Assembly: GCA_044892525.1 (NCBI GenBank)
Contig: CM097885.1
Coordinates: 24,926,001 to 24,990,000, forward strand
Source of the DNA: Schmidtea polychroa
Lineage: Eukaryota
Reading direction: 5' to 3'
DNA: 64,000 nucleotides
The stretch's first letter is position 1; every line of letters starts with the position of its first letter. Of the stretch, positions 21,375 to 63,964 are shown in pieces. A program made the translations under genes and the position numbers. The notes under the pieces are model-generated. The model was not told where the DNA came from, ran no database searches, and saw nothing but the letters and a program-made list of their open reading frames with translations.

Positions 21375-21379
<5 letters not shown>

Positions 21380-22762: not shown

Positions 22763-22819
<57 letters not shown>

Positions 22820-23569: not shown

Positions 23570-23617
<48 letters not shown>

Positions 23618-36700: not shown

Positions 36701-37407
36701 CCTTCGCTGGGTATTACGCCGGATGCAAATTGACGGATACATACTGGTTATCAAAACCCTGAATTAATTGAATGATTGCTACCTAAATTTCTCTAAAGTT
36801 TTCCAAACCAGTTATTATTACCGACTCCTTAATATACCGTACCGCATATCACCCTAATATTATCGTTCCCGAAACATACCTGAACATCGTTCGTTACCTT
36901 TGAGTACAGTTTAAAAATACCTTTGATTATATAAACTAAGTTTTTTCATTATTAAAATGTGCTTAATTATCAATTAGACTGACACCAATTATTAGTTAAG
37001 CAATATTTTTAATTCTTATCGAGAATATCTTGAATTTCTATTTCCGATATTTATAAGATTTAAGGAAATGATTCGTTATAAAATTCCGTTAACGAATCTG
37101 ATGGTTAGTAGCTTATTCAGTCAATATTTCTCTAAGGTTAGCTATGATATTATAGTTAAGATCGCAATTGTTATCTATGATATTTAATAGAACAAGGTTC
37201 AGGACCATTTGTAACGCTCAGGCTTAAAAATCCCGATTCTATTATTAGCGCTTGGTTTAAGTTTTCCATCGTTGGTTAGCATGTCCTGATTATCCCTAAT
37301 TAATTTAGCAAGTCCGTTATCGTCTAAATTATTTAATTATACTTGTCTACAATTATTCACTTAGTAATTCTGTTACCCTTTAAATTATTTAATTCAAATC
37401 ATAATTG

Positions 37408-38748
37408 TGTTGGCCTAGAACTGATTTCTAGACCCAACCTTATAATTGTGACTGAAATGTGTAGGTGCACAACATACAAAAAAGCAAAAAGTATTGCTAA
37501 ATATTAAAAACTACACCAAATAAACAATGGTAATTAAAGGAGAAAGCAACAAAAAATAAACACAGAAATTAAATAAAATTATACAAAAGCAAGAAGTTAT
37601 GCAAAATCTAACTCAAAAATAACCAAATAAACATAGAGTTACAAGAAACAAACTCGAATAACTTAAAAGATGGTAAAAACAGAAAAAAATTCCAGAAAAA
37701 CCGAGAACATTCCATAAAAATGGCGATGACCATCGTAAAAGCTACCTTAAACAATAAAATTTAGAAAAATAAATAAATTAGTAATAAAAATAAAGAAAAT
37801 CTTAAAAAGAAATTCATAAGACATCACTAAAATAAAAATTAAATTAAAATTAACATGGAATGTTCTGGAACCGTTCCAAATCCATCATGGACGTAAAATT
37901 AATGAAAAATAATTATAAAATAAAAATATAGAAATAAAAACAAAAATTATGGCACTAAAATTGCCACTAAAAATATCAAAATCGCAAAATAGAAAATTCT
38001 GGAATAAAAAGAATTCGAGTTTGTTTTAATGCATCAATACATACACGTGTACAAAATAGGTATATATACCGACGCATTTTAGTCACAAGTTAATCTTTAT
38101 GCCAAATTTTTTTTGTTATTATTATTGTTCTATTGAAAAATTTTAAAGAACTGTTTTTTTTATTTTATTTTATGTATTTTTACCATATTAATTGTATTTT
38201 GAGTATCTATTGAACAATTATATTGAAAGATTTAATCTTAATATGATTCTGATAAAGGAATCCCCATTTAAATTTTTTGAGGGATCAACATTGATCGAAT
38301 TTATCATCGATTTTGGTCCGTCTCGCATAATATTTTTTTTGCTATTTCAACAACATCTACAACGTCATTGTGCACGCAGCGTTGACGTATGCAGGCCACT
38401 GCCTGGCATGCACCTCAGTACTATAAAGGGTGGGGTCGTCGGAGGTCGTACCGACTCAGTGGTATACGCCGCTGGGTTCGTCGATGAATCACCTCCGGGC
38501 GATGGAGTTCTCGGAACACGTTATTGGTTATTATAATACGGTAGTATATTACCGATTACATTCACAATAGGGCTTGTCGTAGGGAGTACAGTGAGGCCCC
38601 GAAAGCAGGCAATGTTCTGTAAATTTGACTTTGTTTTCATGCATAAAGTACATATAACGTATACACTAAAAATCAACACGAATACAGTACACTAGGTATG
38701 ATAAACGGAGTAAAGCTCCAGACTCAATTAATTACACTGTCGAATACA
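37408..38748 (+). mobile_element. Probable solo LTR, family 1
   Basis: TG...CA ends with a candidate 5-bp TSD AATTG (37403-37407 and 38749-38753). The first ~700 bp closely match the copies at 41688 and 28899(-). TATATATA lies near 38061. Confidence 0.65.
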
Positions 38749-39775: not shown

Positions 39776-41687
39776 ATGGCAACAAAACGAAATGCAAAAC
39801 CGATTCCTAAAAAAGGAATTCATTGCAAATAAAAAACTTAGAAGAGGAAATTAGACTTTTAAAAGCACAACTGAAAAAGACAGAAGATGAAAACAAGCGC
39901 CTACGTCAAGAAAATTTAATGACAAAAGTTTTTAAGGAACTATTGTTTAAAACCCAAGAGCGAGAGAAGAGAAAAAACCAATGGAGAGATATTTTTAAAG
40001 TTACAAGATAGACAAAAACAAAGGGATTTAAAGGCACAAGTATTAAAAGACCTAATGTTTAAAATTCATGGGAGAAAAAAACACGAAGAGACCCAAATAA
40101 ACTATTTTAATGAATATTTTTCAGTTGTACTTGAAGATGGAGATGAAAAAATTCAAGGATTTATGGTTAGTATTTTTGGAGTGTTGAGAAATACTAGGAC
40201 AAACACATCCCAAGAATTAAATCAACCTTTAAATATGTTCACTCGGAAAATGTTGCAAGCATATAGAGTCCTTCAATGAAAAATCCGACATGGATGAATA
40301 TAGGTTCACAGGAATATTAAAATTCACAAAAGACGAGTTTAGAGTGTTGGAGAGAAGTGATTTTGGAAGGGGAGTTAATTTTAAATTTAAAATTCAAGAA
40401 TATAAGAGTGAGTATTTTTATATACCCTCAGGTGGGAATTGTTTTATTAAATGTGTGATAGAAATTATTTATAAACATTTGAGCAATAAATCAATTCAAG
40501 AAATCACACAATTTTTAACACAAAGATTATCCACTGACAATTGGGTAATTCGCCACCAAGAAAACGAATGGTGTTTAACTTCAAAACTCGATGAAACTTG
40601 TTATAATGGAAGTTTAAATAAATGTCTTTCAATAATAATGACAGAAAGATATAAAGAATACTTGTATAAAAACGAAGGTGATTATCGTGGTGGAATTATG
40701 ACTCTAGCTAAAATACCTAGTTTTTGTGCAAGTCAAAAAATTAACATTTTATATTATAGTGGTAAAGACCGACACTTATACCCCAAACAAAATGTAAAAT
40801 CATGTGAATTTGAAATGGTAATATATTTATTTGAAAACCATTTCTGTTTAATAAATAAACATCATAAAAACGAAGCAATAAAAGAAATAAACAAAAATTA
40901 AAATAAAAAATTATGTAGATTGTAAATTTGAAAATGTTTCAAAGTTTCAGAGTATCAAACAACCACAAAAAAATATCTGAAGATGAAACATTTGCGTGGG
41001 ATTTGGAAACTTCACCAAACATAACAAATGATAATTATTTTAAACCATGGGCAGCCGGATTAATATCTCTAAAAGATGTTTAAAATGTTTTGGGTGAAAA
41101 ATTAGAATTTATCCAAGATTCAAAAAAACAAGACTTGTTAAAACCAAAAGCAAAAATATTTACAGGATTTAATTGTATAACCCAAATGCTTAAATATATA
41201 GGAAACATTCCAAATCAAACAAGTGCAATATTGATCGCTCACAATGGAAGTAAGTTTGATAATTATTTAGTATTACAAGAACAAGGAATTTTTCCATACA
41301 AAATTTTAAAAACATCACAAGGTATAATAAACCTACAATATAAAAATATTTATACATCAAAGAAAAATCAAGATTTAATTAAAAAAAGATTTAGAGAGAA
41401 ACACCCAAATATTAAAAAAATAGAAGGAAAAAGATTTTTTCAAAGAATCACATTTAGATGTTCATTGAACCATATAAAAAATAGTTTGAAAAACATATGT
41501 ACAGCATTTAAACTTCCAAAAGAATTAAGTAAATCAGGATTAGATCATAATAAAATAACTTTGGAATGGGCACCATATTTAAAACTAGATGTTATCTCAT
41601 TAGCTATAATTATTATAAAATATTCTTCAACAATGGAAAATTTGGTTGAACAAAACATGTCGTCGTGTATGTCATCACCATCACTAG
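39776..41687 (+). pseudogene. polB: Decayed Polinton/adintovirus-type protein-primed PolB, N-terminal half, second lineage
   Basis: Across frameshifted ORFs: YIPSGGNCFIKC and NHFCLI (OTU-like Cys/His), AWDLET (ExoI), IAHNGSKFDNY (ExoII), FRCS...SLKNIC.AFKL and YLKLDV (ExoIII). Cut at 41688 by an LTR-like repeat. Confidence 0.82.
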
Positions 41688-43010
41688 TGTTGGGCTAGAA
41701 CTGACTTCTAGACCCAAATTTCTAATTGTGACTGAAATGTGTAAGTACACAGCATGCAAAAAGCAAAAAGTATAGTTAAATATTAAAAACTACACCAAAT
41801 AAACAATAGTAATTAAAGGAAAAAACAACAAATAATAAACACAGAAATTAAATAAAATTATGCAAAATAGAACTCGAAAATAATCAAATAAACACAGATA
41901 AACATAAAATAGACTCGAATAACTTAAAAGACGATAAAAACCGAAAAAATTGCAGAAAAACCCAGAACATTCCATCAAAATGGCGATGACTATCACAAAA
42001 GCCAGCTAGAACAATAAAAGTTAGAGAAAATAAACAAATTAGTATTAAAAATAACAAATCTTAAAAAGAAATTCATAAAAAAACCAGTTAGAATAAAAAT
42101 TAAATTAAAAGTAAAATAGAATGTTCTGGAACCGTTCCAAATCCGTCATGGACGTCAAATTAACGAAAAATAATTAAAAAAATAAAAATTTAATAATAAA
42201 AACAAAAATTATGGCACAAAAATTGCCATTAAAAATATAAAAATCGCAAAATAGAAAATTCTGGAATAAAAAGAATTCGAGTTTGTTTTAATGCATCAAT
42301 ACATACACGTGTACAAAATAGGTATATATACCGACACATTTCGGTCATAATTTAATCACTTTTATGCCAATTTTTGAAGAAAATTTTGCCGACAAAAACA
42401 GTAAGGATTGTTGATTTGTTTTATTTTATTTGTACATTAATGAATTAATTTTGATTTTTATTTGTGTTGAGGATCTATTCTTCAATTTTTTTTGTTGTTT
42501 ATAGTAATGGTTTATTTGGGGAAACTTAAAGTAATTACATATGTTGATGTTTCTTACTTTCGATTTTTCTCCAGGATGCACGAATGTTCAACGGCGTACT
42601 GGTATTCCTGCGTCGTTGTTCAGTCCTGCATCCAATTTATTTAAAATTTTTTTTTGTACATGCATTATTAATACTATATCGATTTACTATTATATCGTCC
42701 TCTTTTTGTTCGGGTCCTTCGGAGGTCGAACTACTTCATGGTCAGGCCATGGAGTTAGGTCGAGGAAACCCTCCGACTGACTCTTTGTATTTATTAAAGG
42801 TCAGCCGTAAGTGGTTGATTTAACACATAACATTAAGGTTTGTGGAAGTGGTCACAGTGGGGCCATGGAAGCAATATTCTTCCCGACCTTTGCTTAATAC
42901 ACAATTAATTTCAACATTTAAAATCATAGACAACATCTCTACACTAAGGTATTAATCTGAGCAGAGCTCATACCTAAACTTACACAATACTGCACTCACA
43001 CTCATGTAGT
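41688..43010 (+). repeat. LTR-like repeat, family 1, interrupting the pPolB relic
   Basis: Starts TGTTGGGCTAGAACTGACTTCTAGACCCAA and is colinear with the 37408 copy; the 3' half is much more diverged. The end is approximate and no TSD was found. Confidence 0.7.
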
Positions 43011-45245: not shown

Positions 45246-48200
45246 ATGAAAATTTTTGACAAGTTATTCGAGAGACCCGCCGTTAACCAGTGCTTAGCAG
45301 AATTGCTTCTACATAGCATTCAAGAGCACTGGCCAGAAATAAAAGAGTTTATTTCATTGGAATATCTATTAACATTTATTTCAGAAAAGAATCAGAATAA
45401 TGATGCTGAGATTTATGAACACTGGAAGAATGTTGCGAATATTATCTATCAGAATGATCCGAGAACCCATGATTATGTTAACCAACTGATATCCCGAGGT
45501 GCTCGTTGCTACGACAGAGAAAGGCATATGAATGCCATATCTATTATCTCCAAATTGACTGAAAGATCTAAAATAACGGTAATTCATGGTCAAAATTACT
45601 ATATAAATAATATTAAAAATTCTGGGTTTAATAAGGAAAATTTTTCTAATTTAATAAATGATAGATCTATTAATAACTATAAAGAAGATAAAAATTATAA
45701 AAATTGTGAAAAAAAGAATTTTTTAGAAAAAACCTATAAAAATGATAGTTTTTTATAAAAACTGTGAAAATAAAAAATATACACCTAAATATTTTGAAAA
45801 ACTATCTGAAAAGCCCGAAATTTTTAATAATCATGATCTAAATATTTTTATGAATAAGTTTATGAATAATTATTTTAAAAATAAAAAAAATGATTTTAAT
45901 ATTAAAGATAAGGATTTTGAAAAAAAGGACGAAAACCACGTTTTTAACAATAATAAATTAAATGATTTTATAAAAAATAATTTTAACAAAAATGAAAATA
46001 AAATTAAAGATTTTAATGAAAATAATTTGTTTGAATATAAATATAAGTTTATACCCCATGATACTGATGAAAGGCCTATACGCAGCTCGCCGGCCTGCGG
46101 CCGACTCGCAGAAAATGTCACCCCCTTTGATAAAATTGATAATAAATTTTTTAATGGTGGAGCCTCACCACAAATAATCCCAGATTGTAAAAAATCTGTA
46201 AATAAAATAGATATTGTAGCTCAAAGTGTTTTTGATACCAAAAATTATTTACAAAATATGAATATTATAGGTAACGAATTTTTTGCAGATATAACATCCC
46301 AATTTGTAAGACTTCACGATATTGACCAATCTGCCTTAAAAATAATATATAGGGATTTTTTTAATAATATTAATAATGACTATACTACCCTAATTAAAAT
46401 TTTAAAACCCGATTATAAGATAGAAAACCTTCCTTTTAACACCACCAACTTCAGATTCTTCTACCATGCTAATATGAAAAAAGAAAACGCAAACTTCATA
46501 AGATACCTAAACAATCTAAGAAATCAACTTTTTTTGATATTTATAAACAACTAAATAAGAATAATAAAACCATAAACTTTAACATCATCACAGACTATTT
46601 TTTTATACTAGGTATCAAATATAAACAATTAACCGCATTTATCTTTCCTTCACTAAATAATATTGAAAGTAAAAAATCACCCATTAAACCATCCGCCTCT
46701 TCTAAATACGCACCGCCTATTAATAAATCGCAAAATACGATAACGCCGCAACCAAATACCGATTTACCACAACCCCCTAATACAACAACGCTGATCGATT
46801 CCCCACACCAACAGACGCCCGCCACAAAACCAATTCCAAAACCGAGAAAAAATTTTCTAGCTCGCACTAACCAATCCACCAAATCAAATCTAGTATCAAA
46901 TAATGACAAACCAACATATAAAAAAGTGTATATTGATAACAACCCCAACCAAAAAAAGAACACTACTAAGCCCTTTCTTAATATAACAACAAATCCGAAA
47001 CTAAAAAATAGATACGAAGCACTCCATAACAAAACCAACTTAGATAACACCACACACCTTCTCTATCAGAATAGACCAATTACGACCAATAAACCCACAC
47101 AAAACCTTAAACTAAGCTCTCAAATCCCAACCCAAATAACCGAATTAAGCACTATCCCAAAAAAAGTCATACCTAAATACAATATAAATACTTCCAAAAG
47201 ACCACATTTTTCTGAATCTATCCCATCGACATATGACCATATTAATAAAAGACCCTTGAACCAGCTAGGGAATATCATTGCGCTAAATGACCAAACAACT
47301 AACCTAATTGACTTAGATGATCATGATGATATGAAAAAAATCCTTATCTGCTATAACCTTTCTAATGAATCATCTGGCCCACCTTCTATTAGCAATAACA
47401 CCGACGTATCCGACACTGAAATAGTTAATACCGATCTTGACATTAATGATAATAATAATCCATATCATAATCATAACGTAGATCTTGATTATAATAACCC
47501 ATCCGACTCTGAATGTAATATAATACCTGACGATCTTGCCATAAACCACCAAATCACTTCCAATGCAGAACCTGCTATACCACCTATTGAAATAATCTAT
47601 GACAAAATTGAATCCTCAACGGAAACTGCGGAGCCGGATATTGATGATATCCAAATCTCTGACTCTGAACCCTCTATAACTTCTGAGCCTTCTCTACAAA
47701 AAACGACTGAAACTATCTCATATAGCCCGCTTGAAAACACAATCAACCCTAGCTCTATGACTCCTAATAAACCGAATATTCATCCACAAATTGACTCAAG
47801 TATAGATCTTTTTGAAAACACACCCTCAAACACGCAAATAAGCACAACAAGTAGCTATACTAATCTATATGACACTAAACCCTCATACATGAATACGCAA
47901 ACATATGAAGCTTTTAATATAGTAAATAATCTAGATGTAGTAGGAAAAACAACCACAATAACACATAATAACATATTAATCCCCACCCCAATAGACGACA
48001 CCAACATTACGTGTACTAATGCTACCCCCATTATAAATAAAGCTGATCTCCAACCAATATTAGAAACAAACGAAACTGAAAAAATAAACACCCCAGTTCT
48101 AAAGCCCAATAAAGTAACATTACGCAAACTAAGAGAACCTATTTTTAAATTAAGAAGTGACGGCTATCTAATATGTTATTTTCCAAACTGTAAAGGTAAG

Positions 48201-50660
48201 ATAGGCGCTACTAGATTAGAAGACCAATTAAAACATAGACTAGAGGTACACACAACTGAAATAAACAAGTATGACACCTTCCAATGTGTTTTATGCTCAC
48301 AACGAAATACAAATATTAAATGTAACTTCTTACTGAATACTATTAACGAACACATAAATGAAACCCATAAAGACTTAGTGGTACCTTTATCTAGAGAAAT
48401 GATTAACATTAAGCTTAAAGAACATACCTTGACTATAAATGAAGAAGGTACCATAAACTGCAACAATAAAACACTAAGAAAACCATGCATAAACAAACTT
48501 ACTATTAGATCAACGCAAGATGAGATTGACAAACATATTAAAACAAAACACAAAACCAAAATATGCAACACCAACCAAATTACGTGTTACTGTGGCATGA
48601 CAATAGAAACGCACACCAAACTAGATCATTTCAATAAGCACATAGGTGTCATACCAGTAGACAAAGGTAACAATATAATTCCTGATGATATACCACTAGT
48701 AAACTCTGACTTAAACTTAGATTGACTAAATCAGCATACAATTAAACTTTACCTACTTGTTTTTGTCAAAAAATATACAACCATTATAATAGATAACTTC
48801 ATAGGCATTGCTCTTATTAAAAAAAATTTTAAAACCTTTTTTGAAACATTCCCTTTCCACCAATACCCTGACTGGAACGAAATTTTCTTTCCAATTAAAA
48901 TTGAGGATAACACATGGTCACTTTTTTACCTCAACAAATTAAAAAAAATAGCTACGCTGATAGACCCGACATGTGGACACAGCACTCTTAAACACAAATT
49001 AATTGCCGATAGCATATTAAGTACAATCCTAAACTTACAAAATATAATATCTCCAACCTCTATTACAATAACTGAACTACAATACCCGACTTGCAGCATA
49101 CAAGAGTCCAGTTTCTATATTTGCCATTTTGCACTCTGCCTAAATAACAATAGAGAAACTTTTACCATTCCAACGATAAACCACATAAGATCACAATTAA
49201 GAGAAATTATTAGTAAAATATTAAATGACAGACTACCTGATGACAACATTAATAAATATAGAAATTTCCTAACTAATCTCACTATACAAATAGATAACAA
49301 TGATATTACCCCAACACTAGGATTAAATGAGATATCTAAGATACATAATGCTCTTTTTCCAAACAAATACCCTAAACCTAATGTTATTATTAATATAAGG
49401 AAAAACACTAAAAAAAATGAACTTGTATATGAAATAAGAAATAATTATATTAAAAAGCCTAAAATAACTATTAATAAAATATTTAATAATATTACCCAAG
49501 TACAACCACCGGCTAGTGAAAAAATTACTAACAACTTTATAAAAAATTTAATTATTGTTGAGAATTTACCACTTATTGAAAATAAATATGATATAGAACA
49601 ACTAACTAATAAGATAATAACAATCAAAGAGATTAATAATAATATTAAGAAAAAGAACCTAAATTCAGCACCAGACACCGACAAAATAACCTATAGAGAC
49701 TGGCGAATAATTGACCCTGACCTCACATTCTTATGCGCTCTTTTCAATAACTTAATCCGTAACATAAAAACTCCAGATAATTGGAAATTTTTTAAAACCA
49801 AACTAATAATTAAACCACATAAAGAGAAGTTAAGTTACGATAGATCTTCATGGAGACCCCTTGCTATCTTAGATACATCTTATAGAATCTTTTCAGCGAT
49901 AATAAACAATAGACTTCTTGAATGGGTAAAGTTAAGGGGCCTTATTAGTATCAACCAAAAAGCAATAGGTATACCAGACGGTTGTTCTGAACATAATATA
50001 ACCCTCACACTAGTAAAAGAAAGAGCAATTCGCAATAATAAAGATATTAATATCATATGGCTTGACTTAGCAGACGCCTTTGGAAGCATCCCACATAAAC
50101 TAATTTGGCAAACACTGATAGAACTAGGTATTAACAACAACACGTTGAACGTATTTAAAGACCTATATAGCAACTGTAAAACACAATATGACTGTGAAGG
50201 GCAACTCACTAGCGAAATAGAAATACATAACGGAGTTAAGCAAGGATGCCCAATGTCCATGACACTTTTTTGTCTGGCAATAGACTTCATACTTAAGGAT
50301 ATACTAAATAAATTCCCCTTAATAATTAGTGAATATAATGTCAGCATATTGGCGTATGCTGATGATATTGTTCTAATATCAGACTCCAGAGATAACATTA
50401 AGGTGATATTAGAACATATAATCAACCTAACCGATAGATCTAAGCTAAAATTCAGACCAAACAAATGTGGATATTTCCAACTACTAAAAAATCATTCTGA
50501 CATCCCTCTAACAATATACGACGAAAAGATCCCGATTATAGATAGCGATAACATTTATAGATACCTAGGTGTAGGTTTTGGCGAAAAGGGAAAACACAGC
50601 ATTGATGACATTTTATCTAAAGCACTAGAAGACGCAAATATGATCTTTACCTCTGACCTA
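45246..50660 (+). pseudogene. Retrotransposon polyprotein, 5' part: N-terminal region, C2H2-like fingers, Ulp1-like domain, reverse transcriptase
   Basis: Joined by T-run frameshifts at ~45750 and ~46530 and one TGA at 48723; open from 48726 to 50660. Motifs SAPDTD, WRPLA, QKA...GCSEH, WLDLADAFGSIPH, GVKQGCPMS, AYADD and YRYLG. Confidence 0.92.
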
Positions 50661-50769
50661 AGTAGATGGATTGGGCACCGCTGGCACAGGGCACCGCTAG
50701 CACAGTACCCCCCCCCTCCCCCCCGTCGGTAAGATTTTCAAAAATATTCTAAGTCTAAAAGTACATTTT

Positions 50770-51345
50770 TTTTCAAGGTCAAATTTAAACAAAGACATAT
50801 GACTCATCAAGGTCATTGAAACAAAGACCATGAGTCATCCTATGACTCATAAAATTTTTCAAGGTCATTTAAACAAAGACCATGACTCATCCGATGACTC
50901 ATCAAGGACATTTTCAAGGTCATGACTCATAGTATGACTCATATGACCTTGAAAAAAATTTTTCAAGGTCGTATGACTCATCCTATGACTCATCAAGGTC
51001 ATTGAAACAAAGACCATGACTCATAGTATGACTCATATGACCTTGAAAATTTTTTTCAAGGTCATATGACTCATCCAATGACTCATCAAGGGCATTTTCA
51101 AGGTCATATGACTCATAGTATGACTCATTAGACCTTGAAAATTTTTTTCAAGGTCATATGGCTCATCAAGGTCATTCTCAAGGTCATATGACTCATCCGA
51201 TGACTCATCAAATTTTTCAAGGTCATTTTCAAGGTCATCTGAGTCATCCTATGGCTCATCAAGGTCATTTTCAAGGTCACATGACTTATCCAAGGTCATT
51301 CCCAAGGTCATATGAGTCATCGCGATGACTCATCAAGGTCATATT
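50770..51345. promoter_or_regulatory. Subterminal array of TGACTCA, TCAAGGTCA and AACAAAG motifs (left arm; mirrored at ~61948-62480)
   Basis: Roughly 20 TGA(C/G)TCA and a similar number of (T/C)CAAGGTCA, counted by eye. Function is inferred only. Confidence 0.5.
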
Positions 51346-51497
51346 ATTATTTTTAAAAAATATTATTATTTTTATTATTATTTTTAAAAATATTATTATT
51401 TTATTTTTAATTTTTTCAAAGTTCCCGCCAACGAAAATTAATAATCGATAGCTCATTTTAAAGCTCAATCCAAGACCTTTCGAATGAGCTATATAAC

Positions 51498-51532
<35 letters not shown>

Positions 51533-51555
51533 ATTATTATTATTATTATTATTAA

Positions 51556-51620
<65 letters not shown>

Positions 51621-51745
51621 GTATTAATCTATATACACCGAGTCTATATACTCTGAGTCTATCCGACAAAATATTTTGTCCCCCTATGGGTAATGCTCAC
51701 AAGGGTACTGGTCACGCTCAACAAATCAACAAAACATACATTTAT

Positions 51746-52177
51746 TTAAACAATAAAATAATGTAAAATTAACAAAGGTAAACTAAATATTGATGCACTT
51801 CTATTCGCAGCATTATTGTTAGAAATTGGTAACGTTGAATTGATTTTCAGATATTCTATTGATCCTTTGATTGTTTGAATTTCTCTTAATAATAATTCAA
51901 TCTTTTTTAACAAATAATCATGCTTCTTATCAATAATCTTCATATTCTTTTTATTTTCAGTAATAGAGTTATTGAAAACCTCAATATGATCAATCAATTT
52001 AATTTTTATATTTTGTATATATTCAAATGTTAGTTCATAACTGTTTTCTAAATTCTCCAATCTTTGAGATATTCTTTTTCCTGGATGCTTTGACCATTTT
52101 GGTTTATCGAGAATATATAAAATATCCATCAACTTGGCTGTATTCGGACAAACACATATTGATTTATTAAAAATCAA
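51746..52177 (-). CDS. Unknown small coiled-coil protein with hydrophobic C-terminus (left arm); start uncertain
   Basis: 143-codon non-repetitive frame downstream of polB, identical in both arms. The listed start is TTG. Confidence 0.5.
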   Translation of the reverse strand: MIFNKSICVCPNTAKLMDILYILDKPKWSKHPGKRISQRLENLENSYELTFEYIQNIKIKLIDHIEVFNNSITENKKNMKIIDKKHDYLLKKIELLLREIQTIKGSIEYLKINSTLPISNNNAANRSASIFSLPLLILHYFIV

Positions 52178-52251
52178 AATAGAGCTTTCAAAATGTAACC
52201 ATCAAATGTATAACAATAGCATGACTAGTACCCTTTGCAACCTGTTTAAAG

Positions 52252-52312
<61 letters not shown>

Positions 52313-52320
52313 ATTATTAA

Positions 52321-52372
<52 letters not shown>

Positions 52373-52412
52373 ATTAATATTATTAATATTATTATTATTA
52401 TTATTTCATTGA

Positions 52413-52556
52413 TATAGCTGCATGCCCACTGCAGACTATATAAAACATATAGCTGCATGCTCACTGCAGACTATATAAAACATATAGCTGCATGCTCACT
52501 GCAGACTATATAAAAAAAACATATAGCTGCATGCTCACTGCAGACTATATAAAAAT
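52413..52556. repeat. 35-bp tandem repeat ATAGCTGCATGCTCACTGCAGACTATATAAAACAT; 4 copies left, 2 copies right (~60704-60773)
   Basis: Directly visible. Confidence 0.9.
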
Positions 52557-52767
52557 CACCATTAAATATAAAAAAATTATAATAAAACACCAAATACTTA
52601 AAAAATCTGATTAAAAATTTTATTGAATATGTATATATAAATACAAGTTTTATACAATATACAGGTTTTTGTACAAGTTTTTAAATAAAAGTTTCTATAC
52701 AATTTTTTATAAATCATGAAATCACTATACAAGTTTTTATAAATCAAAAATATAAAGTTTTTTCTAT

Positions 52768-55700
52768 TTAAATTTGATCTTCGTCCCATTCGCTGTCGTC
52801 AAAACTGGGACTTGGAGCTGGACCGAATTCCTCATCATATTCGCTTAATTCGTCAACTCCTAAATAGTGCCCAAATGCGTAACTTAAGTTTTTTCCTAGC
52901 CACGCGCGCTTATCATCATTATTACTTAGGGCAATTTTCGAATTTTTAAAAGTAAAAAGTTGGTGATTTCTAGTACCTATTCTAGTCTGCGGTACAGAAA
53001 TCACCTGATTTGAATGAAAGCAATTTAGATATGATTCGTGATTTATTGATGTCCCTGGTAATTTAACCCCTTTCGCTTTTACCGTTTCCTTACTACCTAA
53101 AAGACTATAACATTTAGGGCGTAAGAAAACCCATTCAGAATACCCTAATCCCTTGCTCTCATCTTTAAACTTCCCGATGACCGAGTCAAGGTTCCTACTA
53201 TACAAGGGGTGGGTTGGATCGTAATTTGACGTATCCAATAAATTATCAGAGATCATCTGAGGTAATAAAGTTGTTAATTTTAAATTTTTTATTTCCAAAA
53301 AGAAACTGTCGGTATCACCGGCAATAATATTTATGATACATTTATATTGGCGTCTGTACTTCTCCAAATCAATATATTGGAGCTGGTACATCCGCAGTTT
53401 AGACAGATCTAGTACTGTTTGACCAATGTAGCTAGGTCTGTCTAAACAAATCACATCTTTTTCCAAATGTGCCGCAATCAGATCTTGATCGATTCTTATG
53501 GACTTTCTGAAAGTCGGCTTTGAGGAGTATACTATCATCTTTTCGGATGAATTACACAACCTCAAATTCATTCTTTTTTTCAAATTTTCAACCGATTTAC
53601 CGTAAAGAGAGTTATTATACAATTTAAACAAGTCCCTATATATCTCACTAGTAGACTGAGATCGTAAAGTGGTGTTGGTGTCTATGTAGGATTTAAAGAT
53701 AGGTCCTTGTTTAAACTTTATACACCTATGAATATTTACAACAACCGCACCTAATTCTATATACAATTTGAGAAGCCTCCAATGAAGAACATAGTTCCTC
53801 TTTGGCCAATGCGTAAGCATAAGCTTCTCAACTTTTGAATTAGGCGGGCACAACTTTTCCGGCGCAAGCGGAAAATCATTCAAAAAGTCATGCACACATT
53901 CCGGAATATCGATATCGACCTCCATAGTATACCCATATGGAAGGTTATCAATATCCGTGTTCATACATTCAAGTAAAACATCATTCAAGTTATTATTCAC
54001 CCAAGAAAAATCACCATACGGAAGATTTTGGCTAAGAGCCCAACCATACAGATTATTTATATCAATGTACAATAATTCTGTATCATCTGAAGTAGCCGTG
54101 TAATGTTTGTTAACAAATGTTAACCCACCCCGGATACCTCCCTCATAGAAATTATACATTTCCATGTCCTGCAGAAGTTCTATTGGTTCCGTTAATGTCA
54201 TAAGCGCTGAGGCCCATGACATACCGGGAATCCCGTAGAAATTAAGAGGATCCAGACCATTGTAAGCAATTGCCTTACCGCGGAATTGCTGAAAATAATC
54301 TGCGAGGAGGTATACGTCCAATTTTAGGTAGATTAACATATAATCTAACAAATTATTACAGTTATGCTGACTCCAAATTAGTTGAGCCTCAGCGTACTGA
54401 TCTTCCGTAACATCAGACCAAATAGGAGGTAATTCTAAAGTCGATTCAAGAACATCTAAAGAAGTGGCGAAATTATATGGAAAGATACCTTTAGAGTGAA
54501 TCATCGACCCTTGAAAGACAGACGAAGTCAAAGGAAAAGTAGTTAAGGTTTTCACAGCTTTTGCTAAAGAACAATTAACAAATTGCATGCTGTCAATAAA
54601 ACGAACAGGCAATTTGTTAATATATGCAATTAAAGATATAAATTTTTCTGTAGAGGTAGGTATAATATTAAGTTCCCAAAGGGGAAAATCACTGAGACCA
54701 TGTTTTAAAATATGGTGGAGGTCATAGCCTCGTAAATTATGAAAGACAACAGGTAACAATTTATTAATCCTGCGAGAGACATTGCATTTCCTACATGCCG
54801 CTCCGACATATCTACCTGTAAAATGGCAATGATCTCTCACAGGATTAATAATAGATTTTTTACACAAATAACAAATAGTGGAAGATCGAAAGGCACGCTC
54901 CTGAGCAAAAGACAAAGTAGACATACCTTTACGACCTTCAAGATCATAATATGGCAGGACAATTGTGACAGCAATTTCCTCCACTTTCCTCAAAAAATCC
55001 AAAATACAATTAGGTCCAAAAAAATAATAATAAAATTTAGTGTGTGTATAATTATTAATTAATAAAAGACCTGCTGATATGGGTAAATGTATTTGATGAT
55101 ATGTTTCATGTTCTGGTAAAACCGATTCAAAATCGGCATAAATTACGAAGGGAGGTGTAACTGTTTTCGCGTAATCTGTGAATAATAAATCTTTATTTTT
55201 AGGAAGTGTATACAAAGTTGTGCCAGTCTGATTTTTACAGCATAGAGCAACATGCTGATCGAAAGCATTCTTATATCTAAAGCCATTTAAACAATGAGGG
55301 CACCAGTTACACCTTATTTGAACATTTACATTTTCATTTTCATGACAATTCATTAATTTGTCCAAGTCTGTCACGGCTGTATAATGATATTTATCTTTAT
55401 TACTCAAAAGTAATAAATAAATTGGTCTACCGTCTATAACCTTGGAGCGATGTACTATATTAAGATGAGGGTGGTGAGCTACATAATCCTCAGAAATATC
55501 TAAATCAGAACTGGCTGGATTATAAGACAGAACGTTTATGCTCAAGTTTAAATCTCTATTTTTTCTTTCAAATTTGGGAATGTTGCATAGCCTCATCGGG
55601 CAATCAGTGTCTTCGTCATAATTTAATAGAGGTAAAAATTCTATATATTTGGCGGCTCTTTGGTGATTACGACCTATTTCTTCTCTTTTTAAAAGTGCAA

Positions 55701-56763
55701 GAATGCTATACAAGAAGCACTTATGGTCGTTGTTTTTTACATTAATTATTGCATGTTTTAATTTTAATGCTGATGGGGTTTTTATATAGCTATGTCCGGA
55801 TAATCTACTGACGGGTGCGTATTTCGTTAAAATAAAATCTATTTCTAAAATATTCATTACTCGCCACCCGCTTCCTAAATAGGTGAATTGCTCAATCTTT
55901 TCATTTAATTTGCTCACCCCCTCGTTTATAAAGTTTGATGTAAAAACTTGAGCATTGTTCGAAAAATAATTATCCCGGATCTCCCCATCTTTTTCAAATT
56001 TAATTAAAATTGTGAATTGAATTTTTACATTGCCCATCTTTTCTATTTCCTGTATTAATCTATCTTCAATTTTTGATGTTAGGGCTATTTTTACTAAGTT
56101 TTGATTTCTAATATCAAATCTTAAAGTTTTACGCGATCCGTTCAAATCGGATTCTACCATAGGTTCAAACAAAGAGCCGCCTATTTGGCATATGTTCAAA
56201 GACGTTGAAGCTACACATTCATCATTGATGACTATCACTTCTTGTTGTGTAATGGGTGCGTGTTGTGTAATGGGTGCTTGGTGTGTAAACGATGTTGAAG
56301 CTACACATTCATCTTTGCTGATGACTATCACTTCAGGTCGCGATAATTTATTAGGAATGCAATTTTTAATTAAACCAGCAGGTCTTTTAATAGAATCTTT
56401 TTTAATATTTATAATATCTTTTTTAATAATATTTATAGTATCTTTTTTAATAGCATCTTTTTTAATATTTGAATCTTTAATAATATTTTTTTTATTTTTT
56501 TTAATATTTTTTTGCAAATTTTTTTGTAAATTATTTTCTAAATTTTTTTGTAAGTTTTTTTGTAATTTATTTTCTAATTTTTTTTTTTTATTTAATTTTT
56601 TATTTATTTTTTTAAATAAAACATTTTTTGATATCGAAAATTGCCCTAAGTGATTATGATGTTTATTAAAAAATTCCCTATATTTTATTTTTTCGCTCGT
56701 TACACATTTGGGGCATATAAAAAAGTTGACAGAATTAAACTTTTTTCGGTAATATTTTGTCAT
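52768..56763 (-). CDS. polB: Protein-primed family B DNA polymerase, Polinton type, intact, 1331 aa
   Basis: ATG at 56763. Motifs GSGW, INVKNNDHKCFLYSI (OTU-like), YADFES (ExoI), CYLC..VRDHCHFTG.Y.GAAC.KCN (EndoVII/HNH-like), FHNLRGYD (ExoII), KGIFPY, YLKLDV, YIDINNLYG, KLYNNSLYGK, GDTDS, RPKCY and KAKG. Confidence 0.96.
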   Translation of the reverse strand: MTKYYRKKFNSVNFFICPKCVTSEKIKYREFFNKHHNHLGQFSISKNVLFKKINKKLNKKKKLENKLQKNLQKNLENNLQKNLQKNIKKNKKNIIKDSNIKKDAIKKDTINIIKKDIINIKKDSIKRPAGLIKNCIPNKLSRPEVIVISKDECVASTSFTHQAPITQHAPITQQEVIVINDECVASTSLNICQIGGSLFEPMVESDLNGSRKTLRFDIRNQNLVKIALTSKIEDRLIQEIEKMGNVKIQFTILIKFEKDGEIRDNYFSNNAQVFTSNFINEGVSKLNEKIEQFTYLGSGWRVMNILEIDFILTKYAPVSRLSGHSYIKTPSALKLKHAIINVKNNDHKCFLYSILALLKREEIGRNHQRAAKYIEFLPLLNYDEDTDCPMRLCNIPKFERKNRDLNLSINVLSYNPASSDLDISEDYVAHHPHLNIVHRSKVIDGRPIYLLLLSNKDKYHYTAVTDLDKLMNCHENENVNVQIRCNWCPHCLNGFRYKNAFDQHVALCCKNQTGTTLYTLPKNKDLLFTDYAKTVTPPFVIYADFESVLPEHETYHQIHLPISAGLLLINNYTHTKFYYYFFGPNCILDFLRKVEEIAVTIVLPYYDLEGRKGMSTLSFAQERAFRSSTICYLCKKSIINPVRDHCHFTGRYVGAACRKCNVSRRINKLLPVVFHNLRGYDLHHILKHGLSDFPLWELNIIPTSTEKFISLIAYINKLPVRFIDSMQFVNCSLAKAVKTLTTFPLTSSVFQGSMIHSKGIFPYNFATSLDVLESTLELPPIWSDVTEDQYAEAQLIWSQHNCNNLLDYMLIYLKLDVYLLADYFQQFRGKAIAYNGLDPLNFYGIPGMSWASALMTLTEPIELLQDMEMYNFYEGGIRGGLTFVNKHYTATSDDTELLYIDINNLYGWALSQNLPYGDFSWVNNNLNDVLLECMNTDIDNLPYGYTMEVDIDIPECVHDFLNDFPLAPEKLCPPNSKVEKLMLTHWPKRNYVLHWRLLKLYIELGAVVVNIHRCIKFKQGPIFKSYIDTNTTLRSQSTSEIYRDLFKLYNNSLYGKSVENLKKRMNLRLCNSSEKMIVYSSKPTFRKSIRIDQDLIAAHLEKDVICLDRPSYIGQTVLDLSKLRMYQLQYIDLEKYRRQYKCIINIIAGDTDSFFLEIKNLKLTTLLPQMISDNLLDTSNYDPTHPLYSRNLDSVIGKFKDESKGLGYSEWVFLRPKCYSLLGSKETVKAKGVKLPGTSINHESYLNCFHSNQVISVPQTRIGTRNHQLFTFKNSKIALSNNDDKRAWLGKNLSYAFGHYLGVDELSEYDEEFGPAPSPSFDDSEWDEDQI

Positions 56764-56770
56764 TGTTATT

Positions 56771-59700
56771 AAATATTATTAAAGATTCAAATATTAAAAA
56801 AGATGCTATTAAAAAAGATACTATAAATATTATTAAAAAAGATATTATAAATATTAAAAAAGATTCTATTAAAAGACCTGCTGGTTTAATTAAAAATTGC
56901 ATTCCTAATAAATTATCGCGACCTGAAGTGATAGTCATCAGCAAAGATGAATGTGTAGCTTCAACATCGTTTACACACCAAGCACCCATTACACAACACG
57001 CACCCATTACACAACAAGAAGTGATAGTCATCAATGATGAATGTGTAGCTTCAACGTCTTTGAACATATGCCAAATAGGCGGCTCTTTGTTTGAACCTAT
57101 GGTAGAATCCGATTTGAACGGATCGCGTAAAACTTTAAGATTTGATATTAGAAATCAAAACTTAGTAAAAATAGCCCTAACATCAAAAATTGAAGATAGA
57201 TTAATACAGGAAATAGAAAAGATGGGCAATGTAAAAATTCAATTCACAATTTTAATTAAATTTGAAAAAGATGGGGAGATCCGGGATAATTATTTTTCGA
57301 ACAATGCTCAAGTTTTTACATCAAACTTTATAAACGAGGGGGTGAGCAAATTAAATGAAAAGATTGAGCAATTCACCTATTTAGGAAGCGGGTGGCGAGT
57401 AATGAATATTTTAGAAATAGATTTTATTTTAACGAAATACGCACCCGTCAGTAGATTATCCGGACATAGCTATATAAAAACCCCATCAGCATTAAAATTA
57501 AAACATGCAATAATTAATGTAAAAAACAACGACCATAAGTGCTTCTTGTATAGCATTCTTGCACTTTTAAAAAGAGAAGAAATAGGTCGTAATCACCAAA
57601 GAGCCGCCAAATATATAGAATTTTTACCTCTATTAAATTATGACGAAGACACTGATTGCCCGATGAGGCTATGCAACATTCCCAAATTTGAAAGAAAAAA
57701 TAGAGATTTAAACTTGAGCATAAACGTTCTGTCTTATAATCCAGCCAGTTCTGATTTAGATATTTCTGAGGATTATGTAGCTCACCACCCTCATCTTAAT
57801 ATAGTACATCGCTCCAAGGTTATAGACGGTAGACCAATTTATTTATTACTTTTGAGTAATAAAGATAAATATCATTATACAGCCGTGACAGACTTGGACA
57901 AATTAATGAATTGTCATGAAAATGAAAATGTAAATGTTCAAATAAGGTGTAACTGGTGCCCTCATTGTTTAAATGGCTTTAGATATAAGAATGCTTTCGA
58001 TCAGCATGTTGCTCTATGCTGTAAAAATCAGACTGGCACAACTTTGTATACACTTCCTAAAAATAAAGATTTATTATTCACAGATTACGCGAAAACAGTT
58101 ACACCTCCCTTCGTAATTTATGCCGATTTTGAATCGGTTTTACCAGAACATGAAACATATCATCAAATACATTTACCCATATCAGCAGGTCTTTTATTAA
58201 TTAATAATTATACACACACTAAATTTTATTATTATTTTTTTGGACCTAATTGTATTTTGGATTTTTTGAGGAAAGTGGAGGAAATTGCTGTCACAATTGT
58301 CCTGCCATATTATGATCTTGAAGGTCGTAAAGGTATGTCTACTTTGTCTTTTGCTCAGGAGCGTGCCTTTCGATCTTCCACTATTTGTTATTTGTGTAAA
58401 AAATCTATTATTAATCCTGTGAGAGATCATTGCCATTTTACAGGTAGATATGTCGGAGCGGCATGTAGGAAATGCAATGTCTCTCGCAGGATTAATAAAT
58501 TGTTACCTGTTGTCTTTCATAATTTACGAGGCTATGACCTCCACCATATTTTAAAACATGGTCTCAGTGATTTTCCCCTTTGGGAACTTAATATTATACC
58601 TACCTCTACAGAAAAATTTATATCTTTAATTGCATATATTAACAAATTGCCTGTTCGTTTTATTGACAGCATGCAATTTGTTAATTGTTCTTTAGCAAAA
58701 GCTGTGAAAACCTTAACTACTTTTCCTTTGACTTCGTCTGTCTTTCAAGGGTCGATGATTCACTCTAAAGGTATCTTTCCATATAATTTCGCCACTTCTT
58801 TAGATGTTCTTGAATCGACTTTAGAATTACCTCCTATTTGGTCTGATGTTACGGAAGATCAGTACGCTGAGGCTCAACTAATTTGGAGTCAGCATAACTG
58901 TAATAATTTGTTAGATTATATGTTAATCTACCTAAAATTGGACGTATACCTCCTCGCAGATTATTTTCAGCAATTCCGCGGTAAGGCAATTGCTTACAAT
59001 GGTCTGGATCCTCTTAATTTCTACGGGATTCCCGGTATGTCATGGGCCTCAGCGCTTATGACATTAACGGAACCAATAGAACTTCTGCAGGACATGGAAA
59101 TGTATAATTTCTATGAGGGAGGTATCCGGGGTGGGTTAACATTTGTTAACAAACATTACACGGCTACTTCAGATGATACAGAATTATTGTACATTGATAT
59201 AAATAATCTGTATGGTTGGGCTCTTAGCCAAAATCTTCCGTATGGTGATTTTTCTTGGGTGAATAATAACTTGAATGATGTTTTACTTGAATGTATGAAC
59301 ACGGATATTGATAACCTTCCATATGGGTATACTATGGAGGTCGATATCGATATTCCGGAATGTGTGCATGACTTTTTGAATGATTTTCCGCTTGCGCCGG
59401 AAAAGTTGTGCCCGCCTAATTCAAAAGTTGAGAAGCTTATGCTTACGCATTGGCCAAAGAGGAACTATGTTCTTCATTGGAGGCTTCTCAAATTGTATAT
59501 AGAATTAGGTGCGGTTGTTGTAAATATTCATAGGTGTATAAAGTTTAAACAAGGACCTATCTTTAAATCCTACATAGACACCAACACCACTTTACGATCT
59601 CAGTCTACTAGTGAGATATATAGGGACTTGTTTAAATTGTATAATAACTCTCTTTACGGTAAATCGGTTGAAAATTTGAAAAAAAGAATGAATTTGAGGT

Positions 59701-60491
59701 TGTGTAATTCATCCGAAAAGATGATAGTATACTCCTCAAAGCCGACTTTCAGAAAGTCCATAAGAATCGATCAAGATCTGATTGCGGCACATTTGGAAAA
59801 AGATGTGATTTGTTTAGACAGACCTAGCTACATTGGTCAAACAGTACTAGATCTGTCTAAACTGCGGATGTACCAGCTCCAATATATTGATTTGGAGAAG
59901 TACAGACGCCAATATAAATGTATCATAAATATTATTGCCGGTGATACCGACAGTTTCTTTTTGGAAATAAAAAATTTAAAATTAACAACTTTATTACCTC
60001 AGATGATCTCTGATAATTTATTGGATACGTCAAATTACGATCCAACCCACCCCTTGTATAGTAGGAACCTTGACTCGGTCATCGGGAAGTTTAAAGATGA
60101 GAGCAAGGGATTAGGGTATTCTGAATGGGTTTTCTTACGCCCTAAATGTTATAGTCTTTTAGGTAGTAAGGAAACGGTAAAAGCGAAAGGGGTTAAATTA
60201 CCAGGGACATCAATAAATCACGAATCATATCTAAATTGCTTTCATTCAAATCAGGTGATTTCTGTACCGCAGACTAGAATAGGTACTAGAAATCACCAAC
60301 TTTTTACTTTTAAAAATTCGAAAATTGCCCTAAGTAATAATGATGATAAGCGCGCGTGGCTAGGAAAAAACTTAAGTTACGCATTTGGGCACTATTTAGG
60401 AGTTGACGAATTAAGCGAATATGATGAGGAATTCGGTCCAGCTCCAAGTCCCAGTTTTGACGACAGCGAATGGGACGAAGATCAAATTTAA
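56771..60491 (+). CDS. polB: Inverted duplicate of pPolB lacking the first ~92 codons and the native ATG
   Basis: Protein is identical to the minus copy from NIIKDSNIKK to the stop. The listed start is TTG; the first in-frame ATG is at ~57099 (MVESDL). Confidence 0.9.
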
Positions 60492-60806
60492 ATAGAAAAA
60501 ACTTTATATTTTTGATTTATAAAAACTTGTATAGTGATTTCATGATTTATAAAAAATTGTATAGAAACTTTTATTTAAAAACTTGTACAAAAACCTGTAT
60601 ATTGTATAAAACTTGTATTTATATATACATATTCAATAAAATTTTTAATCAGATTTTTTAAGTATTTGGTGTTTTATTATAATTTTTTTATATTTAATGG
60701 TGATTTTTATATAGTCTGCAGTGAGCATGCAGCTATATGTTTTATATAGTCTGCAGTGGGCATGCAGCTATATCAATGAAATAATAATAATAATAATATT
60801 AATAAT

Positions 60807-60879
<73 letters not shown>

Positions 60880-60887
60880 TTAATAAT

Positions 60888-60970
<83 letters not shown>

Positions 60971-61044
60971 CTTTAAACAGGTTGCAAAGGGTACTAGTCA
61001 TGCTATTGTTATACATTTGATGGTTACATTTTGAAAGCTCTATT

Positions 61045-61476
61045 TTGATTTTTAATAAATCAATATGTGTTTGTCCGAATACAGCCAAGTTGATGGATAT
61101 TTTATATATTCTCGATAAACCAAAATGGTCAAAGCATCCAGGAAAAAGAATATCTCAAAGATTGGAGAATTTAGAAAACAGTTATGAACTAACATTTGAA
61201 TATATACAAAATATAAAAATTAAATTGATTGATCATATTGAGGTTTTCAATAACTCTATTACTGAAAATAAAAAGAATATGAAGATTATTGATAAGAAGC
61301 ATGATTATTTGTTAAAAAAGATTGAATTATTATTAAGAGAAATTCAAACAATCAAAGGATCAATAGAATATCTGAAAATCAATTCAACGTTACCAATTTC
61401 TAACAATAATGCTGCGAATAGAAGTGCATCAATATTTAGTTTACCTTTGTTAATTTTACATTATTTTATTGTTTAA
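61045..61476 (+). CDS. Unknown small coiled-coil protein (right-arm copy)
   Basis: Identical to 51746-52177. An in-frame ATG at 61000 is separated from it by TGA at 61018. Confidence 0.5.
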   Translation: MIFNKSICVCPNTAKLMDILYILDKPKWSKHPGKRISQRLENLENSYELTFEYIQNIKIKLIDHIEVFNNSITENKKNMKIIDKKHDYLLKKIELLLREIQTIKGSIEYLKINSTLPISNNNAANRSASIFSLPLLILHYFIV

Positions 61477-61601
61477 ATAAATGTATGTTTTGTTGATTTG
61501 TTGAGCGTGACCAGTACCCTTGTGAGCATTACCCATAGGGGGACAAAATATTTTGTCGGATAGACTCAGAGTATATAGACTCGGTGTATATAGATTAATA
61601 C

Positions 61602-61770
<169 letters not shown>

Positions 61771-62596
61771 TAATAATTAATAATAATAATAAGTTATATA
61801 GCTCATTCGAAAGGTCTTGGATTGAGCTTTAAAATGAGCTATCGATTATTAATTTTCGTTGGCGGGAACGTTGAAAAAATTAAAAATAAAATAATAATAT
61901 TTTTAAAAATAATAATAAAAATAATAATATTTTTTAAAAATAATAATATGACCTTGATGAGTCATCGCGATGACTCATATGACCTTGGGAATGACCTTGG
62001 ATAAGTCATGTGACCTTGAAAATGACCTTGATGAGTCATAGGATGACTCAGATGACCTTGAAAATGACCTTGAAAAATTTGATGAGTCATCGGATGAGTC
62101 ATATGACCTTGAGAATGACCTTGGTGAGTCATAGGATGAGTCATATGACCTTGAAAAAAATTTTCCAATGTCATATGAGTCATACTATGAGTCATGGTCT
62201 TTGTTTCAATGACCTTGATGAGTCATAGGATGAGTCATATGCCCTTGAAAAATTTTTTCAAGGTCATATGAGTCATACTATGAGTCATATGACCTTGGAA
62301 ATGACCTTGATGAGTCATGGTCTCTGTTTAAATGACCTTGAGAAAATTTTTTTGACCTTGGTGAGTCATATTATGAGTCATATGACCTTGAAAATGTCCT
62401 TGATGAGTCATCGGATGAGTCATGGTCTTTGTTTCAATGACCTTGATGAGTCATATGTCTTTGTTTAAATTTGACCTTGAAAAAATGTACTTTTAGACTT
62501 AGAATATTTTTGAAAATCTTACCGGCGGGGGGGGAGGGGGGGGTACTGTGCTAGCGGTGCCCTGTGCCAGCGGTGCCCAATCCATCTACTGACCTA

Positions 62597-63964
62597 CACC
62601 CAGCACAGAAACTACATGCATATAAAACCTTTATACACTCCCGATTTATTTTTCCTTTCCGAACATGCACAATCAATCATATGATACTTGACTGCAATAG
62701 GAATAAAGTAGTGCAGAATAGAGAAAAACAACTAGGCTATGACCAAAAAATTAAACGAATAATTAAAAACGAACTAAAAGACATACACCAAAATCTTAAT
62801 AATAACTTTATTTATGCGAACTGCTCTTTAGGAGGATTAGGTATCACATCATCCATTGATGAATACATAATCCAAAGTATCACCCAATTTATTAGGATAT
62901 TTAACTCAGATGACATTAAGATGAGAAATTTTATATTAAGTGAACTTATTGAAATAGTCAAAATTAGATCATTAAATAAGGAAATCAATATTAATAATGC
63001 CCTAGACTGGCTTAATGCAGACTGTAAGGGGGACATAAGTGGTAAATCTTCAACAATTTTTTCAAAATTTAGGGAATCATGTAAGAGAATCCGCGAAAAA
63101 TTCAATATTCAATGCAAAATAATAATTATTAAAGGCTTTTTTAACCTAGAAATAAAATACAATAATGAGATTAATTATATAGATAAGAATAACCTAGAAG
63201 ACACATCCTCGGCATTACATAATATTACAAGTAGATGGTATGCTGAAAAATGGTATGACATGATCCACCAGGGACACATATCAAAAACAATAGGAAACAA
63301 TAACTTATCTGCATACCCAATAAAATCAACTGACCTTACCGACAATCAATATTACTTTATAATTAAAGCACGCAATAACATGCTCAGTCTTAATTACACA
63401 ATAAATAGGCACAAAGAGAACCAAAACATACTCTGCAGATTATGCAGCAAAGACTGGGAAACACAGGCACATATTTTTAACCACTGCACCAAAACACAAA
63501 ATGCTAGGAGAAATAAGCACAATAGAGTATTAGAAATAACGCATAAATATCTAACCTCCAAAAACTTTAATGTTGACACAGAGAGAGCACCACCAGGAAC
63601 AATAACTACACTAAGACCTGACTTAATTATAACTTCAAATAGAAACAAAAAAATACACCTACTTGACATTAAGGTACCGTATGACACAATAGAAAATTTT
63701 AACAACGCTAGAGATAACAATTTTGAGAAATATAGAAACTTGGCTATTGAAACTGGCACTGCAAATAAAACTAAAACTACATTATATGCACTTGTTGTAG
63801 GGACTTTAGGAACCTGGGATATCAACAATGATAAACCCTTAAGAGGTATAGGATTAATTGATAGGGAAATTAACATATTAGCTAGGAAATGTATTATAAC
63901 AGCGATCACAGCGAGCTATAATATCTACATGGACCACATTTTAAACACTTTAACTGATAATTAA
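62597..63964 (+). pseudogene. Retrotransposon polyprotein, 3' part: thumb, CCHC knuckle, restriction-like endonuclease
   Basis: Reads HPAQKLHAYKTFI, GGLGI, CRLCSKDWETQAHIFNHC, RNKHNRV, RPDLII, LLDIKVPYD, EKY and VVGTLGTW. In frame with ...IFTSDL at 50660. Confidence 0.93.

Follow-up and report, generated by a model that had tools for sequence, protein, structure and literature searches.

A Single-Copy Palindromic Polinton Derivative in Schmidtea polychroa and Its Possible Origin by Strand Switching

Introduction

Esteban et al. reportedly found in 1997 that palindromic phi29 terminal-protein DNAs, with one end duplicated, arise by a template switch. Here we describe a palindromic derivative of a Polinton from the genome of Schmidtea polychroa, located in a 64-kb stretch of contig CM097885.1 (the window; C1:24926001-24990000, assembly GCA_044892525.1, 781 Mb). 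It is, in our estimation, slightly better than an even bet (probability roughly 0.55) that the joint at the center of this single-copy element, which belongs to a young Polinton family and is flanked by target-site duplications (TSDs), was created by a strand switch in end-primed displacement replication and that the product was then integrated with the aid of a helper.

Several described systems are close to what we observe. In phi29, an end-primed strand-displacement replicon like the one considered here, palindromes derive from the displaced strand (PMC2175359), although those are short phage products made in the test tube and ours are chromosomal molecules of 10-20 kb with TSDs. The snapback genomes of adeno-associated virus (AAV) are also defective and self-complementary, retain either parental end and carry partial genes, and they have been proposed as a source of double-stranded RNA (10.1101/2020.10.20.346957); AAV is, however, a single-stranded, hairpin-primed DNA virus with packaged particles and neither integrase nor TSD. 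Chromosomal fold-back inverted duplications (PMC3907307) share an inverted duplication about a single-copy spacer and templated fold-back insertions (PMC11724301) share short templated pieces at the joints, but the products described there show terminal deletions, dicentrics and 5-34-bp inserts, whereas the event studied here is bounded by two intact element ends with untouched flanks. Template switching with spacer inversion (PMC8604942) produces an inverted loop of the kind that we find in one sister event (D, below), with the difference that there only a few bases are copied before the polymerase returns, while here it would not have returned and would have copied kilobases to the terminus.

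Relative to the Polinton/Maverick elements as described in PMC8097293 and PMC6431247, the shared features are terminal inverted repeats (TIRs) beginning AGTAG, a 6-bp TSD, a protein-primed polB and an 18-19-kb parent with ATPase and integrase open reading frames (ORFs). The window element differs in that integrase, ATPase and any other core ORF are missing, one end is present twice, and its arms measure 5.8 kb as against TIRs of 46-1,447 bp in intact vertebrate elements; its ends, AGTAGA, are related but not identical to the vertebrate (AG)3 or (AGT)2 motifs (PMC8097293). Polinton replication itself has been deduced from gene content and from analogy with adenoviruses and tectiviruses (PMC8097293). 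The word palindrome does not occur in the main texts of PMC8097293 and PMC6431247, and a search of titles and abstract openings returned no publication on palindromic, snap-back, hairpin or inverted-duplication Polintons. What is new here is that an otherwise ordinary family contains at least nine events of this kind, independent of each other and each at a single site, with joints described at base level. The window element behaves like a copy-back, or snap-back, defective genome that has remained unamplified.

Results

The element spans 50661-62590 of the window and is built from two inverted arms of ~5.8 kb flanking a 282-bp spacer. Its parts are as follows.

50661..62590, unstranded: whole palindromic Polinton derivative, 11,930 bp, ends AGTAGATGG...CCATCTACT
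50655..50660, plus strand: left TSD, GACCTA
62591..62596, plus strand: right TSD, GACCTA
50661..56488, plus strand: left arm, 5828 bp
56771..62590, minus strand: right arm, 5820 bp, inverted copy of left arm
56489..56770, unstranded: unique spacer, 282 bp, comprising polB codons 1-92, 4 parental upstream nt and 3 inserted nt
50661..52172, plus strand: segment equal to the parental TIR, ~1.5 kb, with a TGACTCA/TCAAGGTCA array and (TTA)n
61050..62590, minus strand: right-hand counterpart of the parental TIR, its array 22 events from the left one, with private alleles in common
52254..52554, plus strand: (TTA)n and four 35-bp units, outside the parental TIR
60705-60968: mirror of 52254..52554, with a longer (TTA)n and two 35-bp units
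52768..56763, minus strand: polB, full-length copy, ATG at 56763, 1331 aa
56771..60491, plus strand: polB, 5'-truncated copy, shorter by 92 codons; 1130 aa when counted from its first in-frame Met (57099)

The original prediction, made from the letters of this DNA only, described inverted arms around a spacer that holds the 5' end of polB, and this description is borne out: 52511-56488 and 56771-60748 form an inverted match of 3978 nt that is 100% complementary, its halves lie 282 nt apart, and beyond this perfect core the match reaches 50661 and 62590. Because the spacer holds 275 nt of the minus-strand polB ORF, the plus-strand copy lacks 92 codons, so that one polB is full length and the other short, as had been noted, and the jump does land in an A-rich Lys/Ile/Asn stretch. 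In the translated minus-strand ORF we noted what we take to be family-B polymerase motifs. The protein obtains Atlas feature scores of 0.97, 0.96 and 0.95 to clusters with PF03175 in 40-70% of their members, while Pfam and PDB sequence scans gave no polymerase match; by feature scores and motifs we identify the ORF as a protein-primed family-B polymerase. An integrase and a packaging ATPase were looked for among the ORFs and Pfam matches within 50661-62590 and neither was present, which makes the element a non-autonomous Polinton derivative rather than an autonomous member.

The insertion splits a non-LTR retrotransposon whose reading frame is continuous across both flanks.

48726..50660, plus strand: reverse transcriptase (RT) ORF of the retrotransposon, split by the Polinton insertion (RVT_1, E 8.5e-32)
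62591..63964, plus strand: retrotransposon ORF resuming past the insertion (zf-RVT, E 7.4e-5, below the Pfam cut-off)

Flanks and TSD are undisturbed, and neither a terminal deletion nor a flank rearrangement adjoins 50661-62590. The two retrotransposon ORFs at 46473-50660 share one frame, with a single stop between them at 48723-48725, and the layout of zinc fingers, RT and a C-terminal nuclease-like part may place the host element close to the NeSL/R2 type.

The parent family is young, with copies of 18-19 kb and at least 359 polB 3' ends in the whole assembly (213 + 146, from two allele-specific patterns). When the spacer was compared with the assembly, 40 scored matches of 97-100% identity were obtained. 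Six copies read end to end measure 14.2-19.1 kb, each with 6-bp TSDs, the 14.2-kb copy being a plain deletion derivative, and both termini were recovered for 23 of 26 copies checked at both ends, with matching 6-mers in all 23. A parental copy encodes a Pox_A32 ATPase (E 3.5e-7, above the cut-off) and an rve-like integrase ORF (E 1.3e-5, below it); four further parental ORFs have no match in Pfam. In the closest subfamily the TIR comprises element positions 1-1512. Since the parental TIR ends there, 52173-56488 (4.3 kb) is single-copy in the parent and doubled in the window element.

The relationship between the two arms is unusually close. Over 3928 nt (52561-56488) they show no substitution, whereas none of the 741 pairs among 39 family copies is identical (minimum 2 differences, median 20) and the copy nearest to the window differs at 4 sites. 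Both element ends carry common alleles that are missing from 45 other TIRs. The terminal arrays, by contrast, lie 22 events apart, within the span of 8-49 events that separates left and right TIRs of ordinary copies (median 21.5, n = 22), and the arms also differ in two (TTA)n tracts, in the number of 35-bp units (4 vs 2) and by one plain substitution. Identical point alleles combined with differing tandem repeats indicate one lineage and not an assembly echo; both arms come from a single haplotype. The window arms have no private substitution relative to ~49 relatives (the median for ordinary copies is 3, and 2 of 39 lack any), and so there is no sign of a chromosomal life preceding the duplication. 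Telling polB-side from far-side TIRs would help to date the event, but no diagnostic 14-mers separate the two (22 and 23 ends).

The array in the TIRs (50767-51335 and 61945-62486) contains 20 TGA(C/G)TCA motifs per end and 14 and 12 copies of TCAAGGTCA. We take these to be AP-1 and NR5A/ERR-type binding sites, respectively, and the array is a possible host-responsive enhancer at the element ends. Array length differs between the two ends of one element.

The central joint involves the following positions.

56764..56767, minus strand: outermost bases ahead of the polB ATG that are still parental; beyond them the parent departs, exactly at an AG
56768..56770, plus strand: 3-nt junction insertion, candidate slippage copy

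Only four of the seven nucleotides that the original prediction placed upstream of the ATG are thus parental. The other three directly match neither parent nor arm, and 39 of the 40 genome matches to the spacer start at query base 4 or 5. Parental copies read ...TCATAG/AACAATG in every one of the 36 (39 examined) in which the start motif was found, while the window joint reads ...TAATATTT/AAT/AACAATG. The full-length polB has indeed been severed from its native upstream region, as proposed, all 36 parental copies sharing a different sequence there, and many copies run beyond 56767, so that a parental element continues past the joint. With the insertion, the 8-nt sequence TTATTAAA stands twice in direct orientation, at 56766-56773 and again ten bases on, at 56776-56783. 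Guiding microhomology to AAATATTATT, which the prediction proposed to look for, was not recovered: the parental copies compared have no inverted repeat or microhomology to AAATATTATT at the joint, and a slippage reading would leave at most 2 nt.

A junction 30-mer occurs once in the assembly, so that the spacer is observed in one orientation only and the suggested flip/flop isomers were not seen. There are no signs of amplification (a joint at several sites, a spacer in both orientations), the window joint being found once. Logan contigs covering 56640-57240 (4 runs, one study) list no joint, with depth falling across it and loose ends at 56766-56767 and 56771 that continue as parent, although such contigs drop rare variants and may stem from other individuals, and so weigh neither for nor against the joint.

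Three candidate explanations of the joint were set aside. A simple fold-back guided by microhomology is ruled out by the lack of an inverted repeat in the parent at this point, a mobile sub-family sharing the joint by its occurrence in one copy only, and an origin from spliced cDNA because the end of the putative upstream exon differs from what precedes AACAATG. Parental copies (e.g. L040, L022) have, some 110 nt ahead of the polB start codon, a TATATAG box followed by a 58-nt GT..AG stretch that ends precisely where the window element departs from the parent; this stretch is possibly a 5' UTR intron or a splice acceptor at the switch point.

In order to find related events we searched for inverted pairs of markers placed just inside each element end, the far-end marker fitting one subfamily only. 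At least 8 more same-end duplications were obtained, from both element ends and each joined differently; all 8 candidates examined qualified.

Sister A, C1:29602228-29617439: spacer ~1.8 kb
Sister D, C2:98812707-98830934: spacer 2.0 kb
Sister F, C1:248413091-248428169: spacer 0.6 kb
Sister G, C2:18130830-18142667: spacer 1.3 kb
Sister H, C1:93468810-93479225: spacer 0.5 kb, with an inner deletion
Sisters B, C and E: short far-end arms of ~2.7-3.5 kb, spacers ~10-13 kb

The 6-bp flanks match in seven of them (A, B, C, D, F, G, H), the right end of E not having been located. That B, C and E might be full-length copies with long TIRs was rejected, as they proved to be short-arm end replacements.

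At the joint of sister A the switch occurs at a 9-bp inverted repeat, 125 nt are copied and a second jump follows with 1 nt of microhomology. In sister D it takes place at GACC/GGTC, a natural 4-bp inverted repeat, with a 9-nt loop inverted, after which ~44 nt are copied before a second jump with a 5-nt slippage duplication. The joint of G involves 1 nt, H has two joints, and the arms of F differ at 5 polB sites. A short inverted repeat at the spacer boundaries of the parent is thus present for A (9 bp) and D (4 bp) and absent for the window. The junctions of A and D are single-copy.

Spacers are at most 2 kb in 6 of the 9 events, where independent breaks would lead one to expect a share of 0.22 (P = 0.005). 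Two of the four polB-side switch points, those of the window and of G, lie 8 nt apart, for which the probability by chance is 0.7-5%, depending on the range assumed. Private changes common to both arms number 0 in the window, G and D, 4 in A, 7 in F and 33 in H, and arm-specific ones 1 in G and 3 in D, where A and D were compared with 10-11 relatives only and H belongs to a thinly sampled subfamily. With their short spacers and one inverted-loop joint that requires another strand, the sisters fit the strand-switch reading of the original prediction.

Discussion

According to the mechanism that we favor, replication of a free linear copy would have started at the polB-side end, and the nascent strand would have quit its template once it was 4 nt beyond the start codon of polB. 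It would have re-primed ~280 nt back on the opposite strand, either the displaced one or its own (just ahead in the case of sister D); the 3' end may have annealed through 2 nt and been extended by 6 nt before slipping by 10 nt and running back to the terminus. Recopying of the resulting hairpin would give a linear duplex bearing the same end twice, which the integrase of a full-length family member could insert into the retrotransposon. The outcome would be a non-autonomous dead end, both polB copies lacking their native upstream region.

Several observations fit this sequence of events. Both ends trace to one parental terminus and one template lineage, as in copy-back genomes, and the predicted copying back to the same terminus stands in so far as 4.3 kb that are single-copy in the parent occur in both arms on one haplotype; the microhomology that was to be looked for does not. 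An inverted loop at a short inverted repeat marks a switch onto another strand and not self-priming (PMC8604942), and by this criterion sister D switched onto another strand, which fits end-primed replication, a process that provides a displaced single strand. In phi29, displaced strands that are unprotected yield palindromic DNAs (PMC2175359). That palindromic molecules can be integrated in this genome follows from the existence of a second, multi-copy palindromic polB-bearing family; the first 100 of its 571 arm-marker matches include 33 inverted pairs, and C1:15.38-15.40 Mb is a palindrome of this family.

A number of points weigh on the other side. The tandem-repeat differences between the arms, which occur even outside the parental TIR, are not expected of a one-step copy unless such repeats change fast, and the 39 comparison copies were selected by likeness to the window, which favors a zero private count. 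An equally long local match would arise with 4 of the 64 triplets (14% after AT weighting), so that slippage as the source of the 3 inserted nt is suggestive only. Three of the nine events have spacers of ~10-13 kb; the private changes on both arms of A, F and H fit later duplication or thin sampling; and the window, A and D junctions are each single-copy, with no moved copy of any joint seen. Host repair, moreover, also leaves joints with templated inserts, double jumps or microhomology of 0-1 nt (PMC11724301, PMC3907307), and the joints in the window element and its sisters do not identify the enzyme.

Host repair after insertion we regard as unlikely. Here an internal break of a full-length copy would have folded back, been extended by host polymerases along the left arm and annealed to the right TIR, with ~13 kb replaced. 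The style of the joints is that of host fold-back and templated-insertion repair (PMC3907307, PMC11724301), the distance between the end arrays is that seen between the two TIRs of ordinary copies, each of the three junctions tested occurs once, and A, F and H have private changes on both arms. However, no such common changes are found in the window, G and D, the inverted loop of D would need sequence ahead of the broken end that should be missing from a resected left fragment, and back-synthesis of 6 kb with resection of more than 10 kb would be required at least 9 times in one young family.

Still a little more doubtful is end joining, in which two free copies of a clonal pool would have broken at different places and the alternative end-joining machinery of the host would have fused their polB-side pieces head to head prior to integration. 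Such an origin accounts for arms that agree in their point alleles but not in their repeat counts (4 vs 2 35-bp units), for a 3-nt insert lacking microhomology, and for the long spacers of B, C and E and the 5 polB arm differences of F, and plain deletion derivatives like the 14.2-kb copy exist in addition; yet the short spacers exceed the independent-break expectation (P = 0.005), and the local inverted copies in A and D require synthesis on the opposite strand. An artefact of assembly or library preparation, be it a fold-back chimeric read or a collapsed repeat, might be suspected from a single-copy, AT-rich joint and 3978 nt of perfect identity, but is improbable: the flanks are unique on both sides, carry a matching 6-bp duplication and lie within a single continuous retrotransposon frame; four repeat tracts and one plain substitution distinguish the arms; the window haplotype equals none of 39 other copies; and the eight sister events differ in their joints and show divergence between arms.

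Returning to strand switching, one may extend it, tentatively, to the family at large: Polintons might routinely shed copy-back genomes in this way, with a stall hot spot at the 5' boundary of polB, integration in trans, a continuum from enlarged TIRs to palindromes, and the multi-copy palindromic satellite families of this genome as an eventual product. Were this so, the window would hold the youngest frozen step and the joints would be the first sequence-level evidence on Polinton replication. A series of independent copy-back joints, resolved to the base within a single young family, is a natural record of replication errors, and it can be used to test end-primed displacement from both ends, to locate stall sites and to explain why TIR length varies and how palindromic non-autonomous families are born. 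A palindrome of kilobase size in an assembly need not be an artefact, and the 5.8-kb polB inverted repeat could be a source of hairpin RNA directed against the family.

Additional Observations

Within the family, 39 copies are mosaic in the polB region, the window's spacer allele occurring in one set of copies and its arm alleles in another, which suggests, from the allele patterns, frequent recombination among family copies. At C1:242.70-242.77 Mb (L074-L077) ~20 tandem copies of the polB-side end lie ~2.3 kb apart, with the flank TATGTT identical in all those seen; by its sequence this locus appears as an element end converted to a tandem array. Family copies at C4:3.38 Mb (L040) and C4:3.54 Mb (L079), 160 kb apart, have the same flank, TACGGT, the result of a segmental or assembly duplication.

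Palindromic derivatives are nested in other Polinton copies at C2:18.13-18.15 Mb (L124-L127) and C1:15.38-15.41 Mb (L131-L133). The window itself contains an older second element at 15268-24223 with Polinton-type ends, TGACTCA arrays and arms that are ~80% inverted-identical over several kb; it has no long ORFs of note and includes an inner inverted pair from AGTAGAT at 18302 to 20075. A 0.7-kb repeat is present three times (28195-28901, 37406-38110 and 41687-42405), two copies forming a 91% inverted pair ~9 kb apart, and 40233-41698 is a fragmented remnant of a further family-B polymerase (DNA_pol_B_2, E 2.3e-5, below the cut-off).

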